A stretch of 64,000 nt of DNA from positions 82,622 through 146,621 of the forward strand of contig JBHLPR010000001.1 in assembly GCA_048939245.1 (NCBI GenBank), written 5' to 3'. How positions within the stretch are numbered: the first letter of the stretch is position 1; each line of letters opens with the position of its first letter. The translations under genes were made by a program, and so were the position numbers. Of this stretch, positions 25,601 to 40,180 are shown piece after piece. Source of the DNA: Promethearchaeota archaeon. Its GTDB lineage: Archaea > Asgardarchaeota > Hermodarchaeia > Hermodarchaeales > Hermodarchaeaceae. The notes beneath the pieces are model-generated. The model made no database searches. It saw only the letters and a program-made list of their open reading frames with translations, and was not told the DNA's origin.

Positions 25601-28600
25601 ATGAATGGAAGTTTGCTTCTTCCGAAGCGATCACAAACAGCACTATGGTTTTCAACGATTCTATTAGTTTCAATGTTTGTCGGTATCTCCGCTGCACCAA
25701 TAAGTCAGCTCCTAGCGCCTGCATTTACATCATCAACTCCTTCAGTGTTACCAGAGAATTTCTTCAATGGGAATCCTACAACTTCAATGCCAAAGGATGT
25801 CATTGATCCACTCGCAAACATCAATAAGAACTTACACTCATGGATTGAAACCGGAAGCGTGCCCTCGAATATTCGTAGTCGAGACGGCGCCTCCGCTGTT
25901 ATTCTTGGTGTAACATTAGATGTCGATTGGGATGAACTGGAACTCCTCATGGACATTAAAGATGTCTTCCAGGTAGGCCCAGGTTATCTTGTACAAGGCT
26001 GGGTTTCTACTCCCAAGAACCTCAAAGCAATTAACGCCCTTGATTACACTGGTATGATTACTGGTGACGAGTATATCGAATTTCGATCAGATTCTAATCA
26101 AGACCAACCCGTGGTCGACAAATATGTTGTGCGAGACATAATTGGCGTCGACGATATCGAAACCTACTATCCTGATATCAACGGAACAGGTGTCACAATT
26201 GGTATCTGCGATACAGGTGTTGACTTTGGTCACACTGATCTAGCTGGTCAACTTGACCGCGATGGTGGCTTACCCACCACTTTTGATCCTGGTGGAAATG
26301 GCATCATGATCACTAGCTACGCTCTTCCTGTGGTTGGTGGATATCTCCTAACAGAGGGTCTTGATTTCACCATGTGGGTCGCCGCATTCGGTGGCACACG
26401 CTTATCCAACACCACCTATGGCATCTACACTCACGATTTATTCGTTGGTGGATTTGGCGGAATCACAAGCATGTCTGGCTTTTATAAAGTCGGTATGGGT
26501 CTTATTGTTGGCTCAGGAGTTGCTCGCAACTTCTTCGTCTTCATGCTTGTTGACTCAACAACACCCTTTGTCTATGACACGCTTTACATCGACTGGGAAA
26601 CCAGCTGGGCTATAACCGCAGACTATAATGGCATAGCAACCAGCGTTTCAGCAGACTGGGACTTCACCAATAACGCACCCCACCAATGGGGAGACGGGAC
26701 AGAAGTCCTTGCCTTTGACGCGGATAGCGACGGTTATAATGACTACAGCGCTGGAAATCTTGGTTGGACCAACGATATCTATGACCTCATCACTGGTGAC
26801 CTAATCGGTGGTATTGATCCTCAGGGTCGAGGATTTGCCCACTTCCACGATAGTGCATACCATGGTACATGGTGCGCTGGTTCTGCTGCTGGTGCAGGAA
26901 TCCAGACGATGGACATCTACGGGAACGGCACACTCTACAATCTTCCTGGTATCGCTCCAGGCGCGAAGGTCATGGGCTTAATGACACTAACAGGCGGCGA
27001 CTACCTCACCACCTGGTTCTGGGGCGCCGGATATCATCCAGCAACCAGTCCTCCATCGAGGCCTTGGTGGCTCTGGACGTATACGGGTGCTCACCAAGCC
27101 GATGTCCTCAGTAACTCCTGGGGCTATGTCGACGAATTCTTTGGTGGCGCATACAACTTCTTCTGGGGTGTTGACGGCTACAGTGGCATCGTTGACTTTC
27201 TCTCCTGTGGTGGTCTTGAAGACTGGAACGATTATGCTGGTCCACCTCATCCAGCACCGGTCTTTGTGTTCTCCGCAGGAAACGCAGGTCCTGGTTATGG
27301 TACCAGTGGATCACCGGCTGGCCAAACGGCTATTATGGTCGGTGCAAGCACCACCGCCCACTACGCCCAACCCACCTACAACAACGACAGTTCACTCGGT
27401 GCCCAACCCTACGACCAAATTGCTGACTTTTCCAGCAACGGTCCTTTCCCACAATCTAGTCCACTGCCAGATGTGGTAGCTCCTGGAGCCTACGCTTTCG
27501 ATATTTCTCCATTAACCCTCGCTTACGGTGATGGAGCTGAAGCCTGGACAACCTGGGGTGGAACCAGTCAATCTGCACCCTTCACGGCTGGTGTCGTAGC
27601 GCTCATGAAACAAGTGAATAATGTTGCTCAACCCGATCCAGCAACCCGAGTCGGAGGCATCTATGAATCGCTCCTGAAAGCCTCAGCGGATGACATCGGT
27701 CAACCGGCCCTTCGACAAGGGGCTGGCCGCATCAACGCCTATCGGGCTATCGAAATGATGTTTGGCAATGCCACAGACCATTTCGGAAATCCGCTAGTCT
27801 ACATGTGGAGTGACAATACCTTCGGCGAATGGGGAACCTATGGTGATGTGTCTGGCTGGTGGCGCGCCTGGTACATGAACATGTATTACGGTGTGGTTGC
27901 TGGCACCAACACTTACAGTGACGGCGACAGTTACTATCACCCAGGTGTTTCTGGCTTCGCCGGTGCACCCAACGTCACTTGGTATGATGCAGGATTCACC
28001 ACACATTCCATGAAAGCTGGTGATACCAAGGAACTTCAGGTAGGAGCTGGGTTAGCTGGTGGGACGGTAGACCTAGACAGTATGAGCGCTGAATGGTTCA
28101 CACTTGTCAACGAATCGAGTCAGACCTTCACATCTCTCAGCACGTATACAACCTATCCACTCTTTGCAACTGGACACTTCGATAAAGCCTTCCAGGCACA
28201 ATTCATGGCCGCTGACTACGCCGTGATTCACCTCAACTATGGTGCCGACAACTTCGAAGAGGTCTATTTAACCAATGACCTATTCATGGCCAACTACGTG
28301 TTCCTCCATGACTGGAACGACACCAACGGTAACGGTATCATCGACTATCAAAGCGCTGATTCTGTTGGTGAAGTACGCCGTGTCAGTTACGACCAAACTG
28401 CCACTAATTGCCACCAAATCCATGTTGGCAATCCTGGTGCACAATGGAATGGCAACCGCAACGCAACCATCTACTACCACGATGTCGGGAACGAATTCTT
28501 CCTGTGGCGGTCACTTGAAGTTACCGTTACAATTCGACTCTTCAACCGTGTAACATGGAACTGGTTCAGCTTCGTCCAAGACTCTGGACAAATTTGGAAT

Positions 28601-30376
28601 GTCACCGTTGACGTACCCAGTGGAGCCTCACCCGGTTACTACTCTGGGTTTGTTACGGGAACCTACAGTGGATTCACCAAAGAATTCCCCGTAGTTGTCC
28701 GAGTTGATGGCGATGTTGCCCCTGGCTCAAGTCTCACATGGGGCGGAACAGATGGTCATCCCTATGACAACGGCGCTATCACTGGTGGTCTAGACTGGGA
28801 TGGACGCCACCGCACAGGCGAATGGCGATTCTACATCATCGATGTCACCGACGACCTTGATACAGGTGATAACATTACCACGTGGATCATGACCAACGTG
28901 ACATGGATGGATCCCGACACTACAGTCGATATCTTCTTCCTCATGACAGGCTACGGAAACAATGCGTGGCTCGGTGGAGATTGGTTCAGTTCTGACACCC
29001 AATACGTGACCGGTGGTCGCTGGGATGGTGAATCAACTTCACCAACCAGTCAGGTTCACTTCACCGACTTCGCTTGGGGTGCAGGAGTCTCTGGTACATC
29101 TCGTGGATGGTTCATGCTAGTTCTCCATGTTTCCCGCTATGGTGGAAACTATATCCCTGAGAACCTTACTATCACCGTTACACCAGTGAACAATGCCACC
29201 TTGCCTTCTTACGTCGATTACTCCTTTGCTGGATTCCCGGCTGGTGTGGGCGATGTGAATGTTACCACCTCAACGATTACTAATCAAGAAATTGTTGCAG
29301 ATGGTAGCTATACAGGACCACACGCCAGTCTAACTGCAACTCTCGATCCATACTCGGTTCCTGGATTCCCATCAGTTGAAGTTGACGCTGTGGATCTTCA
29401 GTACCGACTCTCCGATGTTCGAACCTTCACTGGATGGTTCGTTGAAAGCAACTGTACACCTGATTCCAACTATGGTGGCCCACCATGGGATGCCGAGTTC
29501 GAATGGGAAGGAATCGCAGCAGGCATGGCTCTCACTGCTTATTGTGAGTGGTATGCATCACCCGACCTCCTCACACCAGACATTGACTTCTTCCTCTATG
29601 CGCCCAACGGACAAGTCTTCGGCAACTGGAACCCCTTCGATACTCCTGAACTCATCGAAGTCATTGCTCCAGTTAGTGGAACCTACATTGTCGGAGTAGA
29701 CTACTTCGATGATGACTCCGCTTCACCCTATGCATGGGGTCCATGGGACTACATCTACTTCGAAGCTGAATGTAACGCCCAGGCAATTATCAGCAACCCT
29801 GCACCAGGACTTACAGTGACGGTGGACACCCATGATCTCGGCTTGAACACTGCGGTTGACGTTGTGCTCAAAGGCTTGACGGGAACTTCTCTTGATGCAA
29901 CCACACTGATTGAGGTGGCGTATCCGAATGTGACGTTCACCAACTACTTTGAACCCACAATCAGCATCACCAATCCAGTGACCGGTGACGTCAAAGGACC
30001 CGGACCCTTCGCCATCAACTGGACTGCCAGTGATACGAACTTGGATGAGACCCTTTCATTCCAAGTTTACATGAGCAACAACGCGGGAGTCAATTGGAGC
30101 CTTGTAGTGGCTGGAACCACTGATTTGAGCACCGTTTGGGATCCCGATGGATTCTACGGAATGAATGCCACTGACCAGATGATGGCCCGTGTCATCGTTA
30201 CCGATGGAATGTACACCGTAACCGACGAAACTGGTATTTTCACACTGACACCAACACCAGCACCTGGACCACCACCACCGTACGAACTCTACGTGGTTAT
30301 CGCAGTAATCGTCATCGTGATCCTCATCTTGCTGACGACCTGCATCCTCAAACGACGCCAAGTAGCAAAAACCTAA
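25601..30376 (+). CDS. Giant membrane-anchored S8 subtilisin-family serine protease (1591 aa)
   Basis: A signal peptide is present (LWFSTILLVSMFVGISAAP). The catalytic triad and oxyanion residue are intact: GICDTGVDFGHTDL (Asp), YHGTWCAGSAAG (His), FSAGNAGPG (Asn), WGGTSQSAPFTAGVVAL (Ser). The C-terminus is a PPPPYELY linker, a TM segment (VVIAVIVIVILILLTTCIL) and KRRQVAKT. Confidence 0.9.
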   Translation: MNGSLLLPKRSQTALWFSTILLVSMFVGISAAPISQLLAPAFTSSTPSVLPENFFNGNPTTSMPKDVIDPLANINKNLHSWIETGSVPSNIRSRDGASAVILGVTLDVDWDELELLMDIKDVFQVGPGYLVQGWVSTPKNLKAINALDYTGMITGDEYIEFRSDSNQDQPVVDKYVVRDIIGVDDIETYYPDINGTGVTIGICDTGVDFGHTDLAGQLDRDGGLPTTFDPGGNGIMITSYALPVVGGYLLTEGLDFTMWVAAFGGTRLSNTTYGIYTHDLFVGGFGGITSMSGFYKVGMGLIVGSGVARNFFVFMLVDSTTPFVYDTLYIDWETSWAITADYNGIATSVSADWDFTNNAPHQWGDGTEVLAFDADSDGYNDYSAGNLGWTNDIYDLITGDLIGGIDPQGRGFAHFHDSAYHGTWCAGSAAGAGIQTMDIYGNGTLYNLPGIAPGAKVMGLMTLTGGDYLTTWFWGAGYHPATSPPSRPWWLWTYTGAHQADVLSNSWGYVDEFFGGAYNFFWGVDGYSGIVDFLSCGGLEDWNDYAGPPHPAPVFVFSAGNAGPGYGTSGSPAGQTAIMVGASTTAHYAQPTYNNDSSLGAQPYDQIADFSSNGPFPQSSPLPDVVAPGAYAFDISPLTLAYGDGAEAWTTWGGTSQSAPFTAGVVALMKQVNNVAQPDPATRVGGIYESLLKASADDIGQPALRQGAGRINAYRAIEMMFGNATDHFGNPLVYMWSDNTFGEWGTYGDVSGWWRAWYMNMYYGVVAGTNTYSDGDSYYHPGVSGFAGAPNVTWYDAGFTTHSMKAGDTKELQVGAGLAGGTVDLDSMSAEWFTLVNESSQTFTSLSTYTTYPLFATGHFDKAFQAQFMAADYAVIHLNYGADNFEEVYLTNDLFMANYVFLHDWNDTNGNGIIDYQSADSVGEVRRVSYDQTATNCHQIHVGNPGAQWNGNRNATIYYHDVGNEFFLWRSLEVTVTIRLFNRVTWNWFSFVQDSGQIWNVTVDVPSGASPGYYSGFVTGTYSGFTKEFPVVVRVDGDVAPGSSLTWGGTDGHPYDNGAITGGLDWDGRHRTGEWRFYIIDVTDDLDTGDNITTWIMTNVTWMDPDTTVDIFFLMTGYGNNAWLGGDWFSSDTQYVTGGRWDGESTSPTSQVHFTDFAWGAGVSGTSRGWFMLVLHVSRYGGNYIPENLTITVTPVNNATLPSYVDYSFAGFPAGVGDVNVTTSTITNQEIVADGSYTGPHASLTATLDPYSVPGFPSVEVDAVDLQYRLSDVRTFTGWFVESNCTPDSNYGGPPWDAEFEWEGIAAGMALTAYCEWYASPDLLTPDIDFFLYAPNGQVFGNWNPFDTPELIEVIAPVSGTYIVGVDYFDDDSASPYAWGPWDYIYFEAECNAQAIISNPAPGLTVTVDTHDLGLNTAVDVVLKGLTGTSLDATTLIEVAYPNVTFTNYFEPTISITNPVTGDVKGPGPFAINWTASDTNLDETLSFQVYMSNNAGVNWSLVVAGTTDLSTVWDPDGFYGMNATDQMMARVIVTDGMYTVTDETGIFTLTPTPAPGPPPPYELYVVIAVIVIVILILLTTCILKRRQVAKT

Positions 30377-32481: not shown

Positions 32482-33006
32482 TTATTGTTCAAGCTTTTCA
32501 ATGATTTGTTCTGTTAGCATTTGAAATGCATCTTCGACCTTATCGCCACTCATCGCACTAGTCTCAACGAAGGAACAGCCATAGCGTTCGACCCATTTCT
32601 GAATTTCCGCTTTCTTTATTTCACGCTTTTTCTTCAAGTCCGACTTGTTACCAATTAAAAGGATTTCAACATCACCAGCATGTTCTCGGATTTCTCGCAT
32701 CCACGTCTCGATTGCTTCAAGGGTATCCGGTCGTGTGAGGTCGAAAACTAACATCGCACCATCAGTTTGTTTGTAGAAGCTTGAACGATAAGGCGCAAAA
32801 CGTTCTTGGCTGGCAATATCCCAAATGATGAGTCGCGCCACCTTATCTTCGAGTTCAATGATTTTGTATGCAAAGTCTACTCCAATTGAGGCTTTATATT
32901 CGCGTTCAAAGCGGTTTTCAACGTATTTGAGAATCAAGCTGGTTTTACCTACTGCAGGATCACCGACTAAAAGTATCTTAAACTCATAATAGGGCTGTTT
33001 GGCCAT
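32482..33006 (-). CDS. Rab/Ras-like small GTPase (174 aa) with atypical G3 motif
   Basis: G1 is GDPAVGKT, switch I is KASIGVDF, G3 is WDIASQERF (canonical WDTAGQE), G4 is GNKSD and G5 is ETSAM. There is no C-terminal Cys for prenylation. Confidence 0.85.
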   Translation of the reverse strand: MAKQPYYEFKILLVGDPAVGKTSLILKYVENRFEREYKASIGVDFAYKIIELEDKVARLIIWDIASQERFAPYRSSFYKQTDGAMLVFDLTRPDTLEAIETWMREIREHAGDVEILLIGNKSDLKKKREIKKAEIQKWVERYGCSFVETSAMSGDKVEDAFQMLTEQIIEKLEQ

Positions 33007-33129: not shown

Positions 33130-34113
33130 CTATTCTGCTGCTTCTTCTACAGCGAGGTTGGTCCAACTCTTTGTGCGAAAGAAATCATAGAAACTCGCTT
33201 CAACCACAGTTAGTTCGCGCGGAACTAGGTTCTGTCCTCTTAAAGCTTTGAGAAAATCTGGTATATGGTTATGAGGGTACTCCACAAAGGCTTTGAGGCT
33301 TCCTCGACCGGATCGGATAGCCGTTTCGACGAAGGGGATTTCTTCGACCTGCCGGAGGGTATCTTCGGTGAGCCTATCAAATGTTACTTCAATCGCTTCA
33401 CCGCCTCCAGTAAGGGACTGGATCAGCTCATCAGGGTGTCCTTGAAGGGAGATTCTACCTTTTTCAAGGAGAACGACTCGATTGCAATATTCGACGACTT
33501 CCAGGTCATGGGAGATAAGAACCATTGAGGTTCCAAAGTGGTAATTGAGTTGTTTAAGATAATTGAGAAGTTCGTGCCGGAGGTGGGCATCGAGACCTGT
33601 AGTTGGTTCATCCAAGAGTAGAATCGGTGGCTGGTGAATCAGACCAACGCAGATAGAAACCCGTTTTCGTTCCCCACCACTAAGAAACTTGACTGGTTTT
33701 TGCATCAGATCCTCATCAAAGCCTAGTATATCCAAGAGTTCAATAGCTCGCTTTCGTATTTCTTTTCCTTCGAGAGCATACATTCGTCCAAAGAAGTGAG
33801 CGTTCTCCAAGGCTGAAAAAGGAAAGTAAAGACTTTGGTCTTCATGCTGAGGGACATACCCTGTAGCATAATGAATTGCGGTTGCTTCCTTTGAAACATC
33901 ATATCCTGCAATTCGGGCATACCCTGAATATGGTTTCAATTGAGCCGTCATTACCCGTAAACATGTTGTCTTACCAGACCCCGACGCTCCAATGACACCC
34001 AGAATTTCTCGTTCCCTAGTGTAGAAAGTGATGTCTTCAAGAATTTTTACTCGACCAATCTTCACTGCGGTTTGGTTGAATTCAATAATTTTGGGGGGCT
34101 TTTGCTCTGTCAT
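33130..34113 (-). CDS. ABC-2-type transporter ATPase
   Basis: Walker A is GASGSGKTT, the signature is LSGGERKR and Walker B is LLLDEPTTGLD. An extra C-terminal ~90-aa domain is typical of ABC-2 ATPases. The start lies 4 bp from the stop of the upstream giant gene. Confidence 0.9.
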   Translation of the reverse strand: MTEQKPPKIIEFNQTAVKIGRVKILEDITFYTREREILGVIGASGSGKTTCLRVMTAQLKPYSGYARIAGYDVSKEATAIHYATGYVPQHEDQSLYFPFSALENAHFFGRMYALEGKEIRKRAIELLDILGFDEDLMQKPVKFLSGGERKRVSICVGLIHQPPILLLDEPTTGLDAHLRHELLNYLKQLNYHFGTSMVLISHDLEVVEYCNRVVLLEKGRISLQGHPDELIQSLTGGGEAIEVTFDRLTEDTLRQVEEIPFVETAIRSGRGSLKAFVEYPHNHIPDFLKALRGQNLVPRELTVVEASFYDFFRTKSWTNLAVEEAAE

Positions 34114-34117
34114 GAAT

Positions 34118-37100
34118 TTATACCCCCGTCTCCTTTGCTAGTTCCCGTAACCGTTTAAGCATATTTTCGAGTCGATTAGCTGGTTCACCTGAGGTGATTC
34201 TCAGTTTCTCGATACGATCCATACGACGGTCGGTTAGAGTCCACTCTATTTCGCGGATAAGCGCTTGGGTCGTATTCAACGTATTATCAATATTTTGAAT
34301 GGTTTGTTCATCAAGGGTTGGTGTTCGCATCCTTCGTTTTCGACGGTACTGGTTTGTGAAGTAGAGACTGATGATGAGGATAGTGAAAAGTGTGACAAGG
34401 AAAATTTGGATAATCATGATGGTGAGGTAATCTGGCTCTTGGGGAGGTGGCGGTTTCTCTGGGGTAGGAAGATAGTAGAAATGCATGAAAGTCGTGGTAC
34501 TCGAATAATCGCCTGGAATAGTGAAGACAATGATTGAGAAAGTTTGAGGGGTGTTTACGGATTCATCGAGTCCAGTCCAGTTTGCAAAAAAGAACGACCC
34601 ATAGCGCCCCTCTGTCACTTCGAAAGCAATGAAGAATGATTGGGTACGATTCGGAAGAACATAGACAACAAACATGGATAATCCTTCGACACCATCTCCT
34701 GTAGTGTTATATGCATCAATAACAAAACCGGCATCATTCCCAATATAAAATGACGAATTCATACCTCCTGTAATCCGAAGGGTTAGGTGGACAGTTTTTC
34801 GGAACAAATAGTGAATAGTTTGATTAACAAAGCGGAGATTATCGAACTTAAAAAGATACGAATTCCCAAACACAGCAGAACAGCCCAAAACATAGAGTTC
34901 TTTATTATCATCATTCAGGTAGATTCCAAAGTTAGTTCCATTGACCCATGCAAAGGGTTGGGCCGTTCCGATATCAGTAAGAACGGTGCCTTCAATAGTG
35001 CTTATGCTATTTACTCCAGAGGTAAATGGAGCTGAAGGGTGCAATTCAGTGGTATTCAATCCTGTAACTCTCCCCCCCAATTGCACGCCATAACTTGAAA
35101 GCAACTGATTTAAAGTTGTATGATTCGATGATTCGGGCTGATCAGCCAGTACCAAAACTTTGAACCCATTATCAATGAATTCTGAAATCGCGGAGGCCTC
35201 ATTCAGAGTAAATCCTTTTTCAGGGTCACAGAGAACGAGTCCATCAAATAACTGAAGAATTGTTGAGTTGATTTCAGAAATCAGAGGGATCTCTGAGAGA
35301 TTGAGTTGTGCTGAGGCGAACAACTCTCGTAATCGCGAATAGCCTGTGAAAAGGCTATCTCCAATTTCATTAAACAGGGAAAAGAGTACATCAAGATTCA
35401 AATCAGTAAAATCAAAGTCTTCAAGATTCGACAAGTTCAGTCCTTGATTATGAATGGAATCAAAGAGAATGACAGCTTTGGGGTAGGTCACATTGATAAT
35501 AAAGGGGAGGGTGAACTGCCAACCATCAGAGGCGCTTAGACTTAGGTTTCCATAATAAGGTCCCGCTTCAATGAACGTGGGAATGAAGAAGGTGATCTGG
35601 AATTGGGTTCCGACAACTATGTCTGTGATCTGTTCCTTGGCAATCTCGGGTGGAGTATCCCATTGTGTGATATTCCGATCAATAGGAAAATCAAAGGCAC
35701 TCTCATAAAACTCAGCAATTCTGACCGTGAGCGAGTTAATGGGGGTTGTGGTGAGAAGAGTGAAATTGTAGATGGCGTAATCATTAGGGAAATAGAGCAT
35801 CATAGGTCCAAATGGAAGGATGTGGGGAATCAGTAACCGCATTCGAGGTGGTGAACTTATGAACACATCACGGTATACGAAATTGTCCAGGGGATAAAGA
35901 TCTTGAGGACTTGTGTTGAGAATGAGATCAAAGTCGATGGCAGGTGCGACAATCCATCCTGCGAAATAGATGTCTGAGACTTCAGGGTTCCATTCAACCG
36001 AAAGTTTCTGAAATTGGAATGGCTTAAAGATGCCCAATTGAAAATACCGCGCAAAGATAGTACCCCCGAAAGGTTGTGAACGATTGGTGAAATATGCGGC
36101 AATCGAATCGACACCAGCGTCTCCAATATTGAGTACAATCACCGATGTTTGATAAGTTGAATTTGTAGTTCCTGTGCGCGCTAAGTCTTTTTGAATCATA
36201 CAAAGATCAGTGAGCGGAACCGCAACTGAAGCATATTCTGTCTGGTTAATACCATGAACTAACGCTGTGAAATTTTGTCCAAAGCCGAGAGTCATCGAAA
36301 TATTCAACGTGCCTGTTTCTGCTGGTAGATTTCCTAATTGCCATTGAGTGGCAAAGCCCACGCCTTCATCGCTTGAGTAGGTAGGTGTCCCATTTAGCGT
36401 TTCATTTTGTAATTGATCACTGACCTCGTCATAAGCTCCCACTTGAACACTTGAGAAAGGATTTGAAGCATTGATGCCAATAAATTGGTCAATACGGGTT
36501 GTTTCATTTATCGGAAGGACATCTCCACGGATATTAAACATATGTGATGTAGCGTTATAGAATCCTTGCTGAATCGACGTATCATTGGCACCACTGAATA
36601 GGTCGAAATCCCACAGACTATAAAGCCGAATATTGTTGACATTTTCTGACCCAATATTAATGAAAAAGAATGAGATGCGAAACGCATTGGCTGAAGGACC
36701 TGAACTGATTTGCCAAGTCTCAATACGGGGAATTATAAGCAGGTTCTCAAAAGACAGGATACCTGTTGTGCGGACATACTCGCCATAAGGTAAACTGGTC
36801 CAATGGAATTCTTGTTCAATGTCGAGAAAAGTAAAGGGAACTGGGTCATTATCTCCAACGGCAAGATAGAACATCCCAAACAACATGTGAAATAAGGTCA
36901 TGTTGGTGATACTACTCGTAACAAGGGCTCCAATTGCAGTAGAATATGTGCTCATGAGCAAGGTCACATTTTCTGCAGTAGCTTCACTAATGATTAACCC
37001 ATAATAGGGAAGTCCAAGACCGACACTTCGTGCTCGATAATCAGATGAAAATGGATTATGCAGTTCGGATAACTCATTATACGCACGACTTGCACTGAGA

Positions 37101-38509
37101 AGACCTGCCCCCTCAGCATTAGGCTCATTAAAAAGTGGTATTGCTCCTCGACGAATCCCGATTGATAACGCTTCTGGGGTAGCGAATCGGCACCCCTCAA
37201 GAATAAGACAGGCGACACCAGCTGTAATTGCTGAGGAAGCAGCAGTTGTACTTGCTAGAGTATAATTCTCATTGAAAGGCGTACCGAAAACACTTCCTCC
37301 AATAAAATCGATGTCCTCCGGAGAGATATCAATTGAGATGTTACCAATCGCAGTTGGAAAAATATTGTATAACGATGCTGAAATGATATCAACGCCCGGT
37401 GCAATTAGATCTGGTTTTGTGCGAAAATCGAAGGTAGGCCCACGACTACTGAAATCAGGGACCAGACCTGTTGCTGTATCGTAAGCACCCACAGTTAATG
37501 CTGCCAAAGATTCTCCCGGTGACATAATGGTTAGGTGGTTTGGTCCCCTATCTCCTGCAGCGCAGATTACTAGAACACCACCTTCTGTAGCTTTCATAAC
37601 TGCCTCCGAGAGGGGATCTCCGGGCATGCCAATTGTTGAGAACGGTAATAATATGATATCTGCACCATTGGTCAAACTCCATTCGATACCTCGGATTATC
37701 CAGGAGGAATAACCCGTTCCGTCGCTCAGAATCACTTTTGCGCTCATTAGTTGCGCTCCTGGGGCAATCCCAGTATAGTTTCCCTGAGACGCTGAACCAG
37801 TGCCTGCAACAAGGGCAGCACAGTAGGTACCATGGCCATTCAAATCAAAAGGAAATGGATCTCCTTCAGCAAAGGACACCTGTGCTAGAACTTTGGGGTC
37901 ATTAGTTGTTTCGTTGTCATCCATGTCATCAAGGTCTGGGTGTGTAACATCGATACCAGTATCTAAGACCGCTACAATTGTATGGGAACCATTTAAACCA
38001 AGATTGTATAATGGGGTGGCATCAATGGTCTCTTTAGGGTGGATGTAACCGTTTGAGGCAATAGGACTTTCTGAATCATATCCTTCAGGGCTATCAAGTT
38101 GAAATTTAAAATCGGTCCAGACTTTTTGGATTTGAGAAAGCCCTGCGAGGTTCTTAAGCTCCCCGACAGTCGTTTGAAAAGAGAGAGCATGTATTAGTTT
38201 GTGATAAGTTCTGATTTTAGCCATTGCTGCAGTCTGAAGGATAGCCCGTTGAGCAGCTCGCCAATTAGTCCTTTCCGACAACTTGGCTACAACATCTACG
38301 GAGGCATTCGGGTCATTTGAAGCTGAAATAAAATCTAAGAGTGGCTTTGATAACTTAGACTCGGGGTCTGTTACCTGTGTGAATTTCGTGAAGAACCGAT
38401 TTGAAAGTTGACCTGCAGCAAAGACGGCGGTGACTAATAACAAGATCACTAGTAGTAATGCTGAGAGCGAATCCAGATTCCTCGGCGTCTTCTGCTTCAG
38501 GTGTTGCAC
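34118..38509 (-). CDS. 1463-aa double-anchored surface protein: I9-like propeptide + degenerate S8 subtilase-like domain + GldG/ABC-auxiliary-like module + TM + cytoplasmic coiled-coil tail
   Basis: The N-terminal anchor is LSALLLVILLLVTAVFAAG. The subtilase Asp (VAVLDTGIDVTHPDL) and His (NGHGTYCAALVAG) are present. The oxyanion position reads AAGDRG and the Ser position reads STTAASSAITAG. Res ~1009-1238 resemble ABC_transp_aux. The C-terminus is PPPPQEPDY, a TM segment and a 79-aa charged tail. Confidence 0.8.
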   Translation of the reverse strand: MQHLKQKTPRNLDSLSALLLVILLLVTAVFAAGQLSNRFFTKFTQVTDPESKLSKPLLDFISASNDPNASVDVVAKLSERTNWRAAQRAILQTAAMAKIRTYHKLIHALSFQTTVGELKNLAGLSQIQKVWTDFKFQLDSPEGYDSESPIASNGYIHPKETIDATPLYNLGLNGSHTIVAVLDTGIDVTHPDLDDMDDNETTNDPKVLAQVSFAEGDPFPFDLNGHGTYCAALVAGTGSASQGNYTGIAPGAQLMSAKVILSDGTGYSSWIIRGIEWSLTNGADIILLPFSTIGMPGDPLSEAVMKATEGGVLVICAAGDRGPNHLTIMSPGESLAALTVGAYDTATGLVPDFSSRGPTFDFRTKPDLIAPGVDIISASLYNIFPTAIGNISIDISPEDIDFIGGSVFGTPFNENYTLASTTAASSAITAGVACLILEGCRFATPEALSIGIRRGAIPLFNEPNAEGAGLLSASRAYNELSELHNPFSSDYRARSVGLGLPYYGLIISEATAENVTLLMSTYSTAIGALVTSSITNMTLFHMLFGMFYLAVGDNDPVPFTFLDIEQEFHWTSLPYGEYVRTTGILSFENLLIIPRIETWQISSGPSANAFRISFFFINIGSENVNNIRLYSLWDFDLFSGANDTSIQQGFYNATSHMFNIRGDVLPINETTRIDQFIGINASNPFSSVQVGAYDEVSDQLQNETLNGTPTYSSDEGVGFATQWQLGNLPAETGTLNISMTLGFGQNFTALVHGINQTEYASVAVPLTDLCMIQKDLARTGTTNSTYQTSVIVLNIGDAGVDSIAAYFTNRSQPFGGTIFARYFQLGIFKPFQFQKLSVEWNPEVSDIYFAGWIVAPAIDFDLILNTSPQDLYPLDNFVYRDVFISSPPRMRLLIPHILPFGPMMLYFPNDYAIYNFTLLTTTPINSLTVRIAEFYESAFDFPIDRNITQWDTPPEIAKEQITDIVVGTQFQITFFIPTFIEAGPYYGNLSLSASDGWQFTLPFIINVTYPKAVILFDSIHNQGLNLSNLEDFDFTDLNLDVLFSLFNEIGDSLFTGYSRLRELFASAQLNLSEIPLISEINSTILQLFDGLVLCDPEKGFTLNEASAISEFIDNGFKVLVLADQPESSNHTTLNQLLSSYGVQLGGRVTGLNTTELHPSAPFTSGVNSISTIEGTVLTDIGTAQPFAWVNGTNFGIYLNDDNKELYVLGCSAVFGNSYLFKFDNLRFVNQTIHYLFRKTVHLTLRITGGMNSSFYIGNDAGFVIDAYNTTGDGVEGLSMFVVYVLPNRTQSFFIAFEVTEGRYGSFFFANWTGLDESVNTPQTFSIIVFTIPGDYSSTTTFMHFYYLPTPEKPPPPQEPDYLTIMIIQIFLVTLFTILIISLYFTNQYRRKRRMRTPTLDEQTIQNIDNTLNTTQALIREIEWTLTDRRMDRIEKLRITSGEPANRLENMLKRLRELAKETGV

Positions 38510-38515
38510 TCTTGG

Positions 38516-40180
38516 TTACACCTCCAATTGTCGACCGGTGATTAAAATAAAGTAATCAGTCATATCCACGCCCATTTTTGGCTTGACGCTCTTAATTTGG
38601 ATATCTTGTGCTTGCAGTGCTCGGACAACTCGCTCTGACATTTCAATCAAAGGTACTTCACTGAAAATCTTGATGAGTTCCCCTCTCTCTAAGACATGGA
38701 TAATGCCTTTCACATCCTGAAGCAGTGACGCTATCCCAGGTCGGGGTTGCTGAAGAATGATTCCAACTGCATAGCCCTTTCCAGGAAGAGACGCTTTTAA
38801 TTCCGCTGGGCTTCCAAAGGCTACAAGGCTGCGTTCTCGCATGAACACACCCACGATATCACAATACTCAGCTTCTCCAGGATAATGGGTAACAACTATC
38901 ATGCTAGTGCCATATTCTTGATTCAAATAATCCAAATAATCCCACAGCTCACTTCGCATATCAGGATCCAATCCGGAGGTTGGTTCATCTAAAATGAGTA
39001 ATTGAGGCCGGTGAACCATGGAAATAGAAATTGAAGCCCGGCGCTTTTCACCTCCAGAAAGAGTTCTAACACTCTGATTTCCTTTTTCAAAAATCCCCAT
39101 TTCACGAAGGAGTACTTTCCCTCGGCGTACTAGTTCCTGTTCAGGTATTCCATATTGTTTCCCAAACTCAATGATGTTTTCCAAAGGCGTAAAATTCTGA
39201 TACATATATCCTAAATCTTGTGGAACAAAGCCGAAGATTGGTTTTACCTGTTTTCGTTGAGTTGATTTTACTCCACCGATGATAACCTGACCTCGAGTGG
39301 GGATTATATCACCAATTAAGGCACGAATTGTTGTGGATTTTCCTGATCCCGATTCCCCGATAATTCCCATAATTTTTCCACTTGGGAGTTTAAAGGAGAC
39401 ATCACGGATAATGTCAAAGTTATCATCGACGGTAAATGTGAGGTTTTCGGCAACAACGACATTCTCCACTTTACCCCGTGTACGAGCATATGCTGGTGTG
39501 AAGAGCATTTTTTGTGCAAGGATGTCAGGAACAATACTGATTAATTCCCGCATAATTTCGGGAGCAGTTTCTCGACCCCCAATTGTTAATATCTGTGCGG
39601 TATCATCAGACGTGGAGTGGGCTGGTGTCGTACGTAATTCCAGCAATCCGACTCTGAGACGTTCCATCCTAGCGTTTGTCACAGTGCCTTGGATATGCCT
39701 TTCCTTACCATTCTCATCGAGTCCCCATATTTGAGCATCAACTTCTGTATATGCAAGTAGTTCTTGGACACGTTTCACCGCATGATCAATTTCCTCTCCA
39801 TCATAATAGAAATCGTCGTGAATGTTTCGTCGAAGCCAATTCATCAACACCAATTGTTTTGCGGCCACTTCTTCTCGTTCGGTTCTCTCTGATCCAATTG
39901 TTAAAACGCTACCTTTGAGACTCTCAGGCCCTTTCTTTACTGAATTCACTAAAAGAGCGATTCGTCTTTGGCGTCCTCTTCTGGTAATATCAAGTAATCT
40001 TCCCTCGATGGCGATTTCCTCATCAGAGCTGCGGAGCTTACCTGTAATCTGTGAATGGAGTTCACGATCACTTCGTTCCTCAATCCAATCTAAAGCATCA
40101 TCGAACCGTGAACCTGCAAAATAGTTCTTCTCAACAAATACGGGAACATCAGTTAATGTTTGCATTCCACTCACATCCAT
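38516..40180 (-). CDS. ABC-2-type transporter ATPase with 239-aa N-terminal extension (internally duplicated module)
   Basis: Walker A GESGSGKST lies at res 275-283. The signature is LSGGEKRR and Walker B is LILDEPTSGLD. The N-terminal extension has two related ~50-aa units ending VLTIGSERTE and ILTIGGRETA. Confidence 0.85.
   Translation of the reverse strand: MDVSGMQTLTDVPVFVEKNYFAGSRFDDALDWIEERSDRELHSQITGKLRSSDEEIAIEGRLLDITRRGRQRRIALLVNSVKKGPESLKGSVLTIGSERTEREEVAAKQLVLMNWLRRNIHDDFYYDGEEIDHAVKRVQELLAYTEVDAQIWGLDENGKERHIQGTVTNARMERLRVGLLELRTTPAHSTSDDTAQILTIGGRETAPEIMRELISIVPDILAQKMLFTPAYARTRGKVENVVVAENLTFTVDDNFDIIRDVSFKLPSGKIMGIIGESGSGKSTTIRALIGDIIPTRGQVIIGGVKSTQRKQVKPIFGFVPQDLGYMYQNFTPLENIIEFGKQYGIPEQELVRRGKVLLREMGIFEKGNQSVRTLSGGEKRRASISISMVHRPQLLILDEPTSGLDPDMRSELWDYLDYLNQEYGTSMIVVTHYPGEAEYCDIVGVFMRERSLVAFGSPAELKASLPGKGYAVGIILQQPRPGIASLLQDVKGIIHVLERGELIKIFSEVPLIEMSERVVRALQAQDIQIKSVKPKMGVDMTDYFILITGRQLEV

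Follow-up and report, generated by a model that had tools for sequence, protein, structure and literature searches.

A subtilase-fold head without its catalytic serine, probably a non-catalytic module, on an ABC-2-associated surface protein of Asgard archaea

A minus-strand gene (34118-38509, GTG start) in the window, i.e. the 64,000-nucleotide stretch of contig JBHLPR010000001.1 of a Promethearchaeota archaeon analysed here, encodes a giant protein of 1463 amino acids that carries a subtilase (peptidase family S8) domain and belongs to an ATP-binding cassette (ABC) operon. A sequence-only reading of the locus had taken the domain to be catalytically dead, with Ala for the nucleophilic Ser and Asp for the oxyanion Asn, and the protein to be a repurposed pseudoprotease. 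The analysis presented here supports that view and strengthens the case for repurposing over decay, as the substitutions are ancient and spread through the family and no other region of the protein is as well conserved as the head, and we put the probability that the head is not a serine protease and has been functionally retained at roughly 0.8.

The Pfam subtilase model PF00082 covers residues 174-448 of the protein (E=2.7e-43, 148.8 bits against a cut-off of 21.8 bits). As the sequence-only reading stated, two catalytic residues are kept, i.e. Asp183, equivalent to subtilisin Asp32 (GAT, 37961-37963, minus strand, as for all residues and domains of this protein), in the motif VAVLDTGID starting at residue 179, and His226, equivalent to His64 (CAT, 37832-37834), in NGHGTYC starting at 224. 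The two replacements it described are found as well: AAGDRG, starting at 317, places Asp320 (GAT, 37550-37552) at the oxyanion-hole Asn155 position, and TTAASSAITAG, starting at 421, places Ala423 (GCT, 37241-37243) at the nucleophile Ser221 position. A further change, Met329 (37523-37525), is aligned with Gly166 at the floor of the S1 pocket.

The assignment of Ala423 to the Ser column holds in all alignments. In a phmmer search of the PDB the query segment 'ASTTAASSAITAG' lies opposite 'APGTAMATPHVAG' of Tk-SP (and YTLASTTAASSAITAG opposite YTAAPGTAMATPHVAG), and as this Tk-SP entry is a deposited Ser-to-Ala mutant, Ala423 falls on the nucleophile. A family profile built from 61 members aligns 'tTaasAaivAG' with 'GTAMATPHVAG' of Tk-SP and 'GTSMASPHVAG' of Vpr, and 'AAGDdGp' with 'AAGNSGP'; the profile alignments to Tk-SP, Vpr and subtilisin BPN' all have Ala423 at the Ser221 position and Thr422 as the counterpart of subtilisin Thr220. 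Identical catalytic columns were obtained with MAFFT and hmmalign against three intact S8 proteins, P0119-P0121 (SGTSMATP, AAGNSG). Of the neighbouring hydroxyl residues that might have stood in as nucleophile, Thr422, Ser425 and Ser426, none occupies that position in any hidden Markov model, profile or fold evidence, and columns 425 and 426 hold Ser or Ala, mostly Ala, across the family. The insertion of about 25 residues noticed ahead of the former Ser block is real and family-specific: residues 379-403 (37301-37375) replace 2 residues in Tk-SP (about 23 extra), correspond to an 18-residue gap in the family profile alignment and have a predicted local distance difference test score (pLDDT) of 58-73 in the model described below. 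Compared with an active S8 peptidase, therefore, the domain lacks both the Asp-His-Ser triad, with Ala423 in the Ser column, and the oxyanion-hole Asn, replaced by Asp320.

Concerning the activity to be expected, subtilisin S221A reportedly has a kcat lowered by about 10^6 (work of Carter and Wells from 1988), and Asn155 substitutions in subtilisin lower kcat by 10^2-10^3. By analogy with these classical mutants the head should lack protease activity: because changes of both the S221A and the Asn155 type are combined with a filled S1 pocket, no serine-protease activity would be expected, autoprocessing included. Self-cleavage needs the Ser, and unless a different protease cuts it off the propeptide would therefore probably remain covalently attached.

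The fold itself is well preserved. An AlphaFold2 model of residues 40-520, made from a 61-sequence alignment, reached a mean pLDDT of 83.7 and a predicted template modelling score of 0.87. Its best PDB match in Foldseek is ProN-Tk-SP (E=1.9e-32), with unprocessed pro-subtilisins among the top matches (425-479 columns), and the mature subtilisins BPN' and Savinase superpose with target-normalised template modelling scores (TM-scores) of 0.87-0.90 and root mean square deviations of 2.1-2.5 Å. The subtilase-fold domain, without its nucleophile, spans residues 161-480 (37070-38029) according to PF00082 and Foldseek. Assigned with DSSP, the helix that formerly carried Ser221 starts at residue 422 of the model, which puts Ala423 at the helix N-terminus. 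The I9-like propeptide (about residues 40-140, 38090-38392), said earlier to be retained, is seen as a β-α-β-β-α-β unit with pLDDT 92-96, in keeping with the pro-subtilisin matches, and the family profile can be aligned with the propeptide of Tk-SP. The giant protein has no significant match to Pfam Inhibitor_I9, for which only the homologue P0034 shows a weak one (E=0.087), and for this reason the propeptide claim rests on fold evidence; this is also the least conserved part of the ectodomain. As judged from the model, the I9-type propeptide and the catalytic-domain fold are both intact.

Searching 5.8 billion proteins yielded about 115 full-length homologues with 29-77% identity, most of them annotated as 'S8 family serine peptidase' or 'subtilisin family serine protease'. 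All named homologues come from Asgard archaea, i.e. Thor-, Hermod-, Hod-, Hel- and Ranarchaeia and 'Promethearchaeota'. Loss of the catalytic Ser is shared by more than 100 of these relatives, and the Asn substitution is equally widespread. Counted over 116 sequences, the Asn155 column holds Asp in 115/115 and the Met222 column Ala in 116/116, while the Ser221 column is occupied by Ala (75), Thr (32), Ser (7) or Phe (2). Asp is present in the Asp32 column in 109/113 filled rows and His in the His64 column in 103/114, the 11 others having Ser, Pro, Arg or Glu; His is lost in one 8-member Thorarchaeota subclade. The S1-pocket floor is Met in 103/116, position 421 is Thr or Ser in 112/116 and position 422 is Thr in 110/116. 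Mapped onto a tree of the full-length proteins, the nucleophile column undergoes at least 17 changes, with Ser at four isolated tips only and Ala in 27/27 members of the query's own clade. Identity in distant homologues is 50% over the head but 24-28% over the other domains and 18% over the propeptide. The query gene is no exception, as the loss characterizes an entire clade within the Asgard archaea.

These data also dispose of a sequencing or assembly error, or a decaying pseudogene, as the source of the substitution. The Ala codon GCT is indeed one base away from the Ser codon TCT, but the open reading frame (ORF) is intact over its 1463 codons, the same residues recur in every member of the query's clade and across the family, dozens of independent genomes carry full-length open frames, and conservation is highest in the head; we consider this explanation refuted. 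The family is present as a single intact ORF in 58/151 sampled genomes across the phylum (22/52 genera), and the protein combines what characterizes a subtilase pseudoenzyme: S8 fold kept, catalytic residue absent, gene intact and conserved.

On a tree of S8 heads, all 47 nucleophile-less representatives fall into one clade (Shimodaira-Hasegawa-like approximate likelihood ratio test support 99), apart from the intact S8 proteins, a topology that fits one ancient loss of the nucleophile in the ancestor of a large Asgard-archaeal clade. An exhaustive HMMER search with the non-S8 part of the protein (residues 470-1463) recovered a sister clade, here called B, of pseudo-subtilases of 1540-1780 amino acids from Hodarchaeales and 'Promethearchaeota', in which Arg or Ser stands in place of His and Gly predominates at the nucleophile position. 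Two of its loci (L005, 6001-10896, and L007, 6001-10611) have two ABC-2 permeases and two ABC ATPases in the operon. The idea that the oxyanion Asp is universal in the wider clade was rejected, as 5/19 clade-B representatives have Asn. Catalytically intact proteins combining S8 with the GIFT domain described below occur in Ranarchaeia, Baldrarchaeia and Bathyarchaeota. One of them, P0190, stands alone, and another, P0200, directly follows an FtsX permease and an ABC ATPase, so a rule linking dead heads to ABC operons and live heads to their absence was discarded, and ABC linkage is not exclusive to the dead forms.

It should be noted that several observations weigh against a head without any chemistry. 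The conservation of Asp183, of His226 and of the invariant Asp320 is tighter than a role in structure alone would demand, which leaves room for residual or different chemistry, or for binding of an ion or ligand at the old active site; 32 homologues have Thr and 7 have Ser in the nucleophile column, and in four of them Asp, His and Ser occur together. In the S53 sedolisins the oxyanion-hole residue is an Asp at the subtilisin Asn155 position. The head might accordingly still be a hydrolase with non-canonical chemistry, in which His226/Asp183 activate water or Thr421/Thr422 and Asp320 acts as in sedolisins, a proposal that gains from the near-invariant Thr-Thr dipeptide and from the head being the most conserved region. 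However, the nucleophile column drifts freely, even to Phe, and His is replaced in 11 members and throughout sister clade B, with gene and operon kept in both cases. Moreover, Thr422 corresponds to Thr220, which does not face His64 in subtilisin, Met fills the S1 floor, and sedolisins still need their own Ser. We regard a surviving hydrolase as quite improbable and keep to a subtilase fold that no longer performs serine proteolysis.

The gene of the giant protein is the third in a tightly packed minus-strand operon, following an ABC-2 permease (PF12698, 40187-41374) and a long ABC ATPase of 554 amino acids with a TrmB-like N-terminal extension (38516-40180), and preceding a short second ABC ATPase of 327 amino acids (33130-34113). 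All three neighbours are kept in the homologous loci L001, L002 and L003. A Thorarchaeota genome and a third Asgard lineage (that of P0034) have the same order of permease, long ATPase, giant protein and short ATPase, and in a Helarchaeota-type genome the operon is rearranged with the genes still adjacent; conserved linkage to an ABC-2 permease and an ABC ATPase, as expected of a GldG-like protein, is thus found. After the short ATPase, L001 (12413-18431) and L003 (12166-18185), from Thorarchaeota and one other genome, have a giant ORF of more than 2100 amino acids with no Pfam match; in the window this slot is held by a Ras-family GTPase gene (32482-33006).

The giant protein is laid out as a doubly anchored surface protein, with pseudo-subtilase head, β-sandwich stalk, GIFT domain, transmembrane (TM) helix and coiled-coil tail. 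Read from the sequence, a hydrophobic segment at residues 15-33 (38411-38467) would be a signal peptide or signal anchor. A second model, of residues 470-1463 (pLDDT 83.2), shows several β-sandwich domains, an α/β domain at about 1041-1260, a further β domain, the TM helix at 1362-1384 and a cytoplasmic coiled coil. The stalk comprises the all-β domains of residues 481-1040 (35390-37069, pLDDT 83), whose Foldseek matches, to multi-β-sandwich arrays and to the ectodomain of site-1 protease (S1P), are generic. Sequence and model agree on the TM helix (34358-34426), just preceded by PPPP, and a basic juxtamembrane stretch followed by the coiled-coil tail, with long helices in the model, occupies residues 1385-1463 (34121-34357). 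This cytoplasmic part, which includes the motif IDNTLN, shows 77% identity among near homologues, matching the S8 head, and might interact with the N-terminal TrmB-like domain of the long ATPase encoded next to it. As suggested by 35 N-x-S/T sequons in the ectodomain (34385-38392), this surface protein would be heavily N-glycosylated.

The α/β domain (34730-35389) is a probable GIFT, GldG-like or GATase-like domain: PF23355 (IFT52_GIFT) scores 30.0 bits, above its cut-off of 27.2 (E=3e-7), PF09822 (ABC_transp_aux) scores 32.6 bits, just below its cut-off of 34.7 (E=6e-8), DUF4350 matches weakly, and IFT52 is matched both in sequence (5fms, E=6e-4) and in fold (about 0.7 in target-normalised TM-score). 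Second among the fold matches of the C-terminal model comes the S1P ectodomain, 9csd_A (E=2.3e-10, 433 columns), and Helarchaeota-type members exceed the cut-off of PF23090 (MBTPS1_4th), the GATase-like fourth domain of MBTPS1. One loop of the head, AAGDRGPNHLTIMSPG (residues 317-332; 37514-37561), is near-invariant across the family, the segment DYLTIMSPG included, and its residues 325-332 have pLDDT below 50 in the head-only model. In S1P the equivalent loop after the oxyanion Asn is ordered only with the GIFT domain packed on it (PMC11231238), and a head-GIFT contact of the same kind is plausible, by analogy, in the giant protein.

The window holds a second S8 gene, at 25601-30376 on the plus strand and 8 kb away, whose catalytic motifs are intact, as had been claimed: ICDTG, YHGTW, SAGNAG and GGTSQSAPFTAG, with the Ser block GGTSQSAP. 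Its Pfam match spans residues 195-699 for a 288-position model, very large inserts splitting the catalytic domain, and its C-terminus has PPPP, a TM helix and a basic tail, as in the pseudo-subtilase. The two are the sole S8 genes in the genome and both encode large, C-terminally anchored S8-fold surface proteins in one neighbourhood; since a dead head cannot remove its own propeptide, processing in trans is conceivable. One could hence picture the pseudo-subtilase regulating the intact paralogue, or being its substrate or partner, much as CspC/CspA control the active CspB. Against this, the homologues examined in other genomes have no S8 gene in their flanking 6-7 kb, the conserved partners are ABC genes and not a protease, and the paralogue's S8 domain is very divergent besides being split. 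Such a partnership appears to us very improbable.

Taken together, the N-terminal domain has a true subtilase fold with its propeptide and would be incapable of serine proteolysis, owing to its Ala nucleophile, oxyanion Asp and S1-floor Met. Since the single loss of the nucleophile the head has been more strongly constrained than the remainder of the protein, and a constraint of this kind would make it a working non-catalytic module. Its most likely role, held with less confidence than the absence of proteolysis, is binding or docking, performed at the tip of a GldG-like protein that would serve an ABC-2 transporter as auxiliary subunit. The subunit would be anchored by its N-terminal segment and C-terminal TM helix, with the permease, the long TrmB-like ATPase and the short ATPase as partners. 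The constraint on the head, the invariant Asp320 and the near-invariant DYLTIMSPG loop suggest that the former active-site cleft now serves, without catalysis, to bind a ligand, an ion or a partner, and the combination of a drifting nucleophile, an oxyanion position fixed as Asp and a filled S1 pocket indicates where a ligand would bind. A bolder proposal, which we offer as speculation and think rather unlikely in its full form, is that the head is the ligand-capturing sensor of an Asgard-specific ABC machine, with a prodomain-S8-GIFT-TM ancestry in common with S1P and intact versions surviving in Baldrarchaeia and Ranarchaeia. A peptide or protein would bind the remodelled cleft (Asp183/His226/Asp320, Met329), and the signal would pass via the GIFT domain, TM helix and coiled-coil tail to the TrmB-like domain of the long ATPase.

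For the more general reading of a retained head without proteolysis, the practical consequence is that well over 100 Asgard proteins are very probably misannotated as S8 peptidases, an error that inflates the extracellular proteolytic capacity predicted in metabolic reconstructions of Asgard archaea. The family would also provide a clean natural example of a protease fold recruited as the non-catalytic ectodomain of an ABC system. Pseudo-subtilases as such are already known, and MEROPS lists non-peptidase S8 homologues; our literature searches found no description of Asgard pseudo-subtilases, Asgard GIFT proteins or an S8-GIFT fusion in ABC-2 operons, and no earlier account of this family or its substitution pattern.

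Among characterized proteins, Tk-SP is the best sequence match (E=1e-48 with the single sequence, 1e-99 with the family profile). With Tk-SP (PDB 3afg/9ues) and the classical subtilisins (MEROPS S8A) the head has in common the fold, the I9-type propeptide and the DTG and HGT motifs, and it differs from them in the Ser to Ala, oxyanion Asn to Asp and S1-floor Gly to Met changes, in the insertion ahead of the former Ser block, and in being membrane-anchored and fused to about 980 further residues. Among prokaryotes, the repurposed subtilases studied best are the clostridial CspC and CspA, subtilase-fold germination sensors that have lost catalytic residues and are conserved and functional as sensors or regulators (PMC6636752, PMC7200643). 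Unlike the giant protein, however, the Csp proteins are soluble, belong to bacterial spores, act together with an active paralogue and have no ABC operon, GIFT domain or membrane anchor; lineage and substitution pattern also differ, so the likeness is one of analogy, not of orthology.

Outside the head, the protein resembles GldG and other PF09822 auxiliary subunits (GldAFG-type) and the archaeal DUF4350 proteins (arCOG01314), covered in general in earlier work (PMC5898192), through its probable GIFT/GATase-like domain, its bulky extracytoplasmic part, its membrane anchors at the termini and the location of its gene next to those of an ABC-2 permease and an ABC ATPase, whereas GldG has no subtilase head, long β-sandwich stalk or cytoplasmic coiled coil. 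Eukaryotic S1P (MBTPS1; PDB 8uw8, 9csd; PMC11231238) presents the same order of parts, i.e. prodomain, S8, β-domain, GIFT, TM helix and basic tail, which we recorded for the window (GIFT domain at 34730-35389), L002 (7001-10837) and L006 (6001-9774). S1P is active, while the triad of the giant protein is broken; the stalk of the latter is much longer, and S1P functions outside ABC systems. A specific sequence kinship of the S8 domains was not found, S1P ranking about 36th for an intact archaeal S8-GIFT relative and matching over the S8 domain only. With its broken triad and unremarkable S8 affinity the giant protein is no member of the site-1 protease family, and only domain order and GIFT fold are common to both. 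This prodomain-S8-GIFT-TM layout nevertheless offers a hint, drawn so far solely from domain order and fold, as to where the unusual GIFT domain of eukaryotic S1P may have come from.

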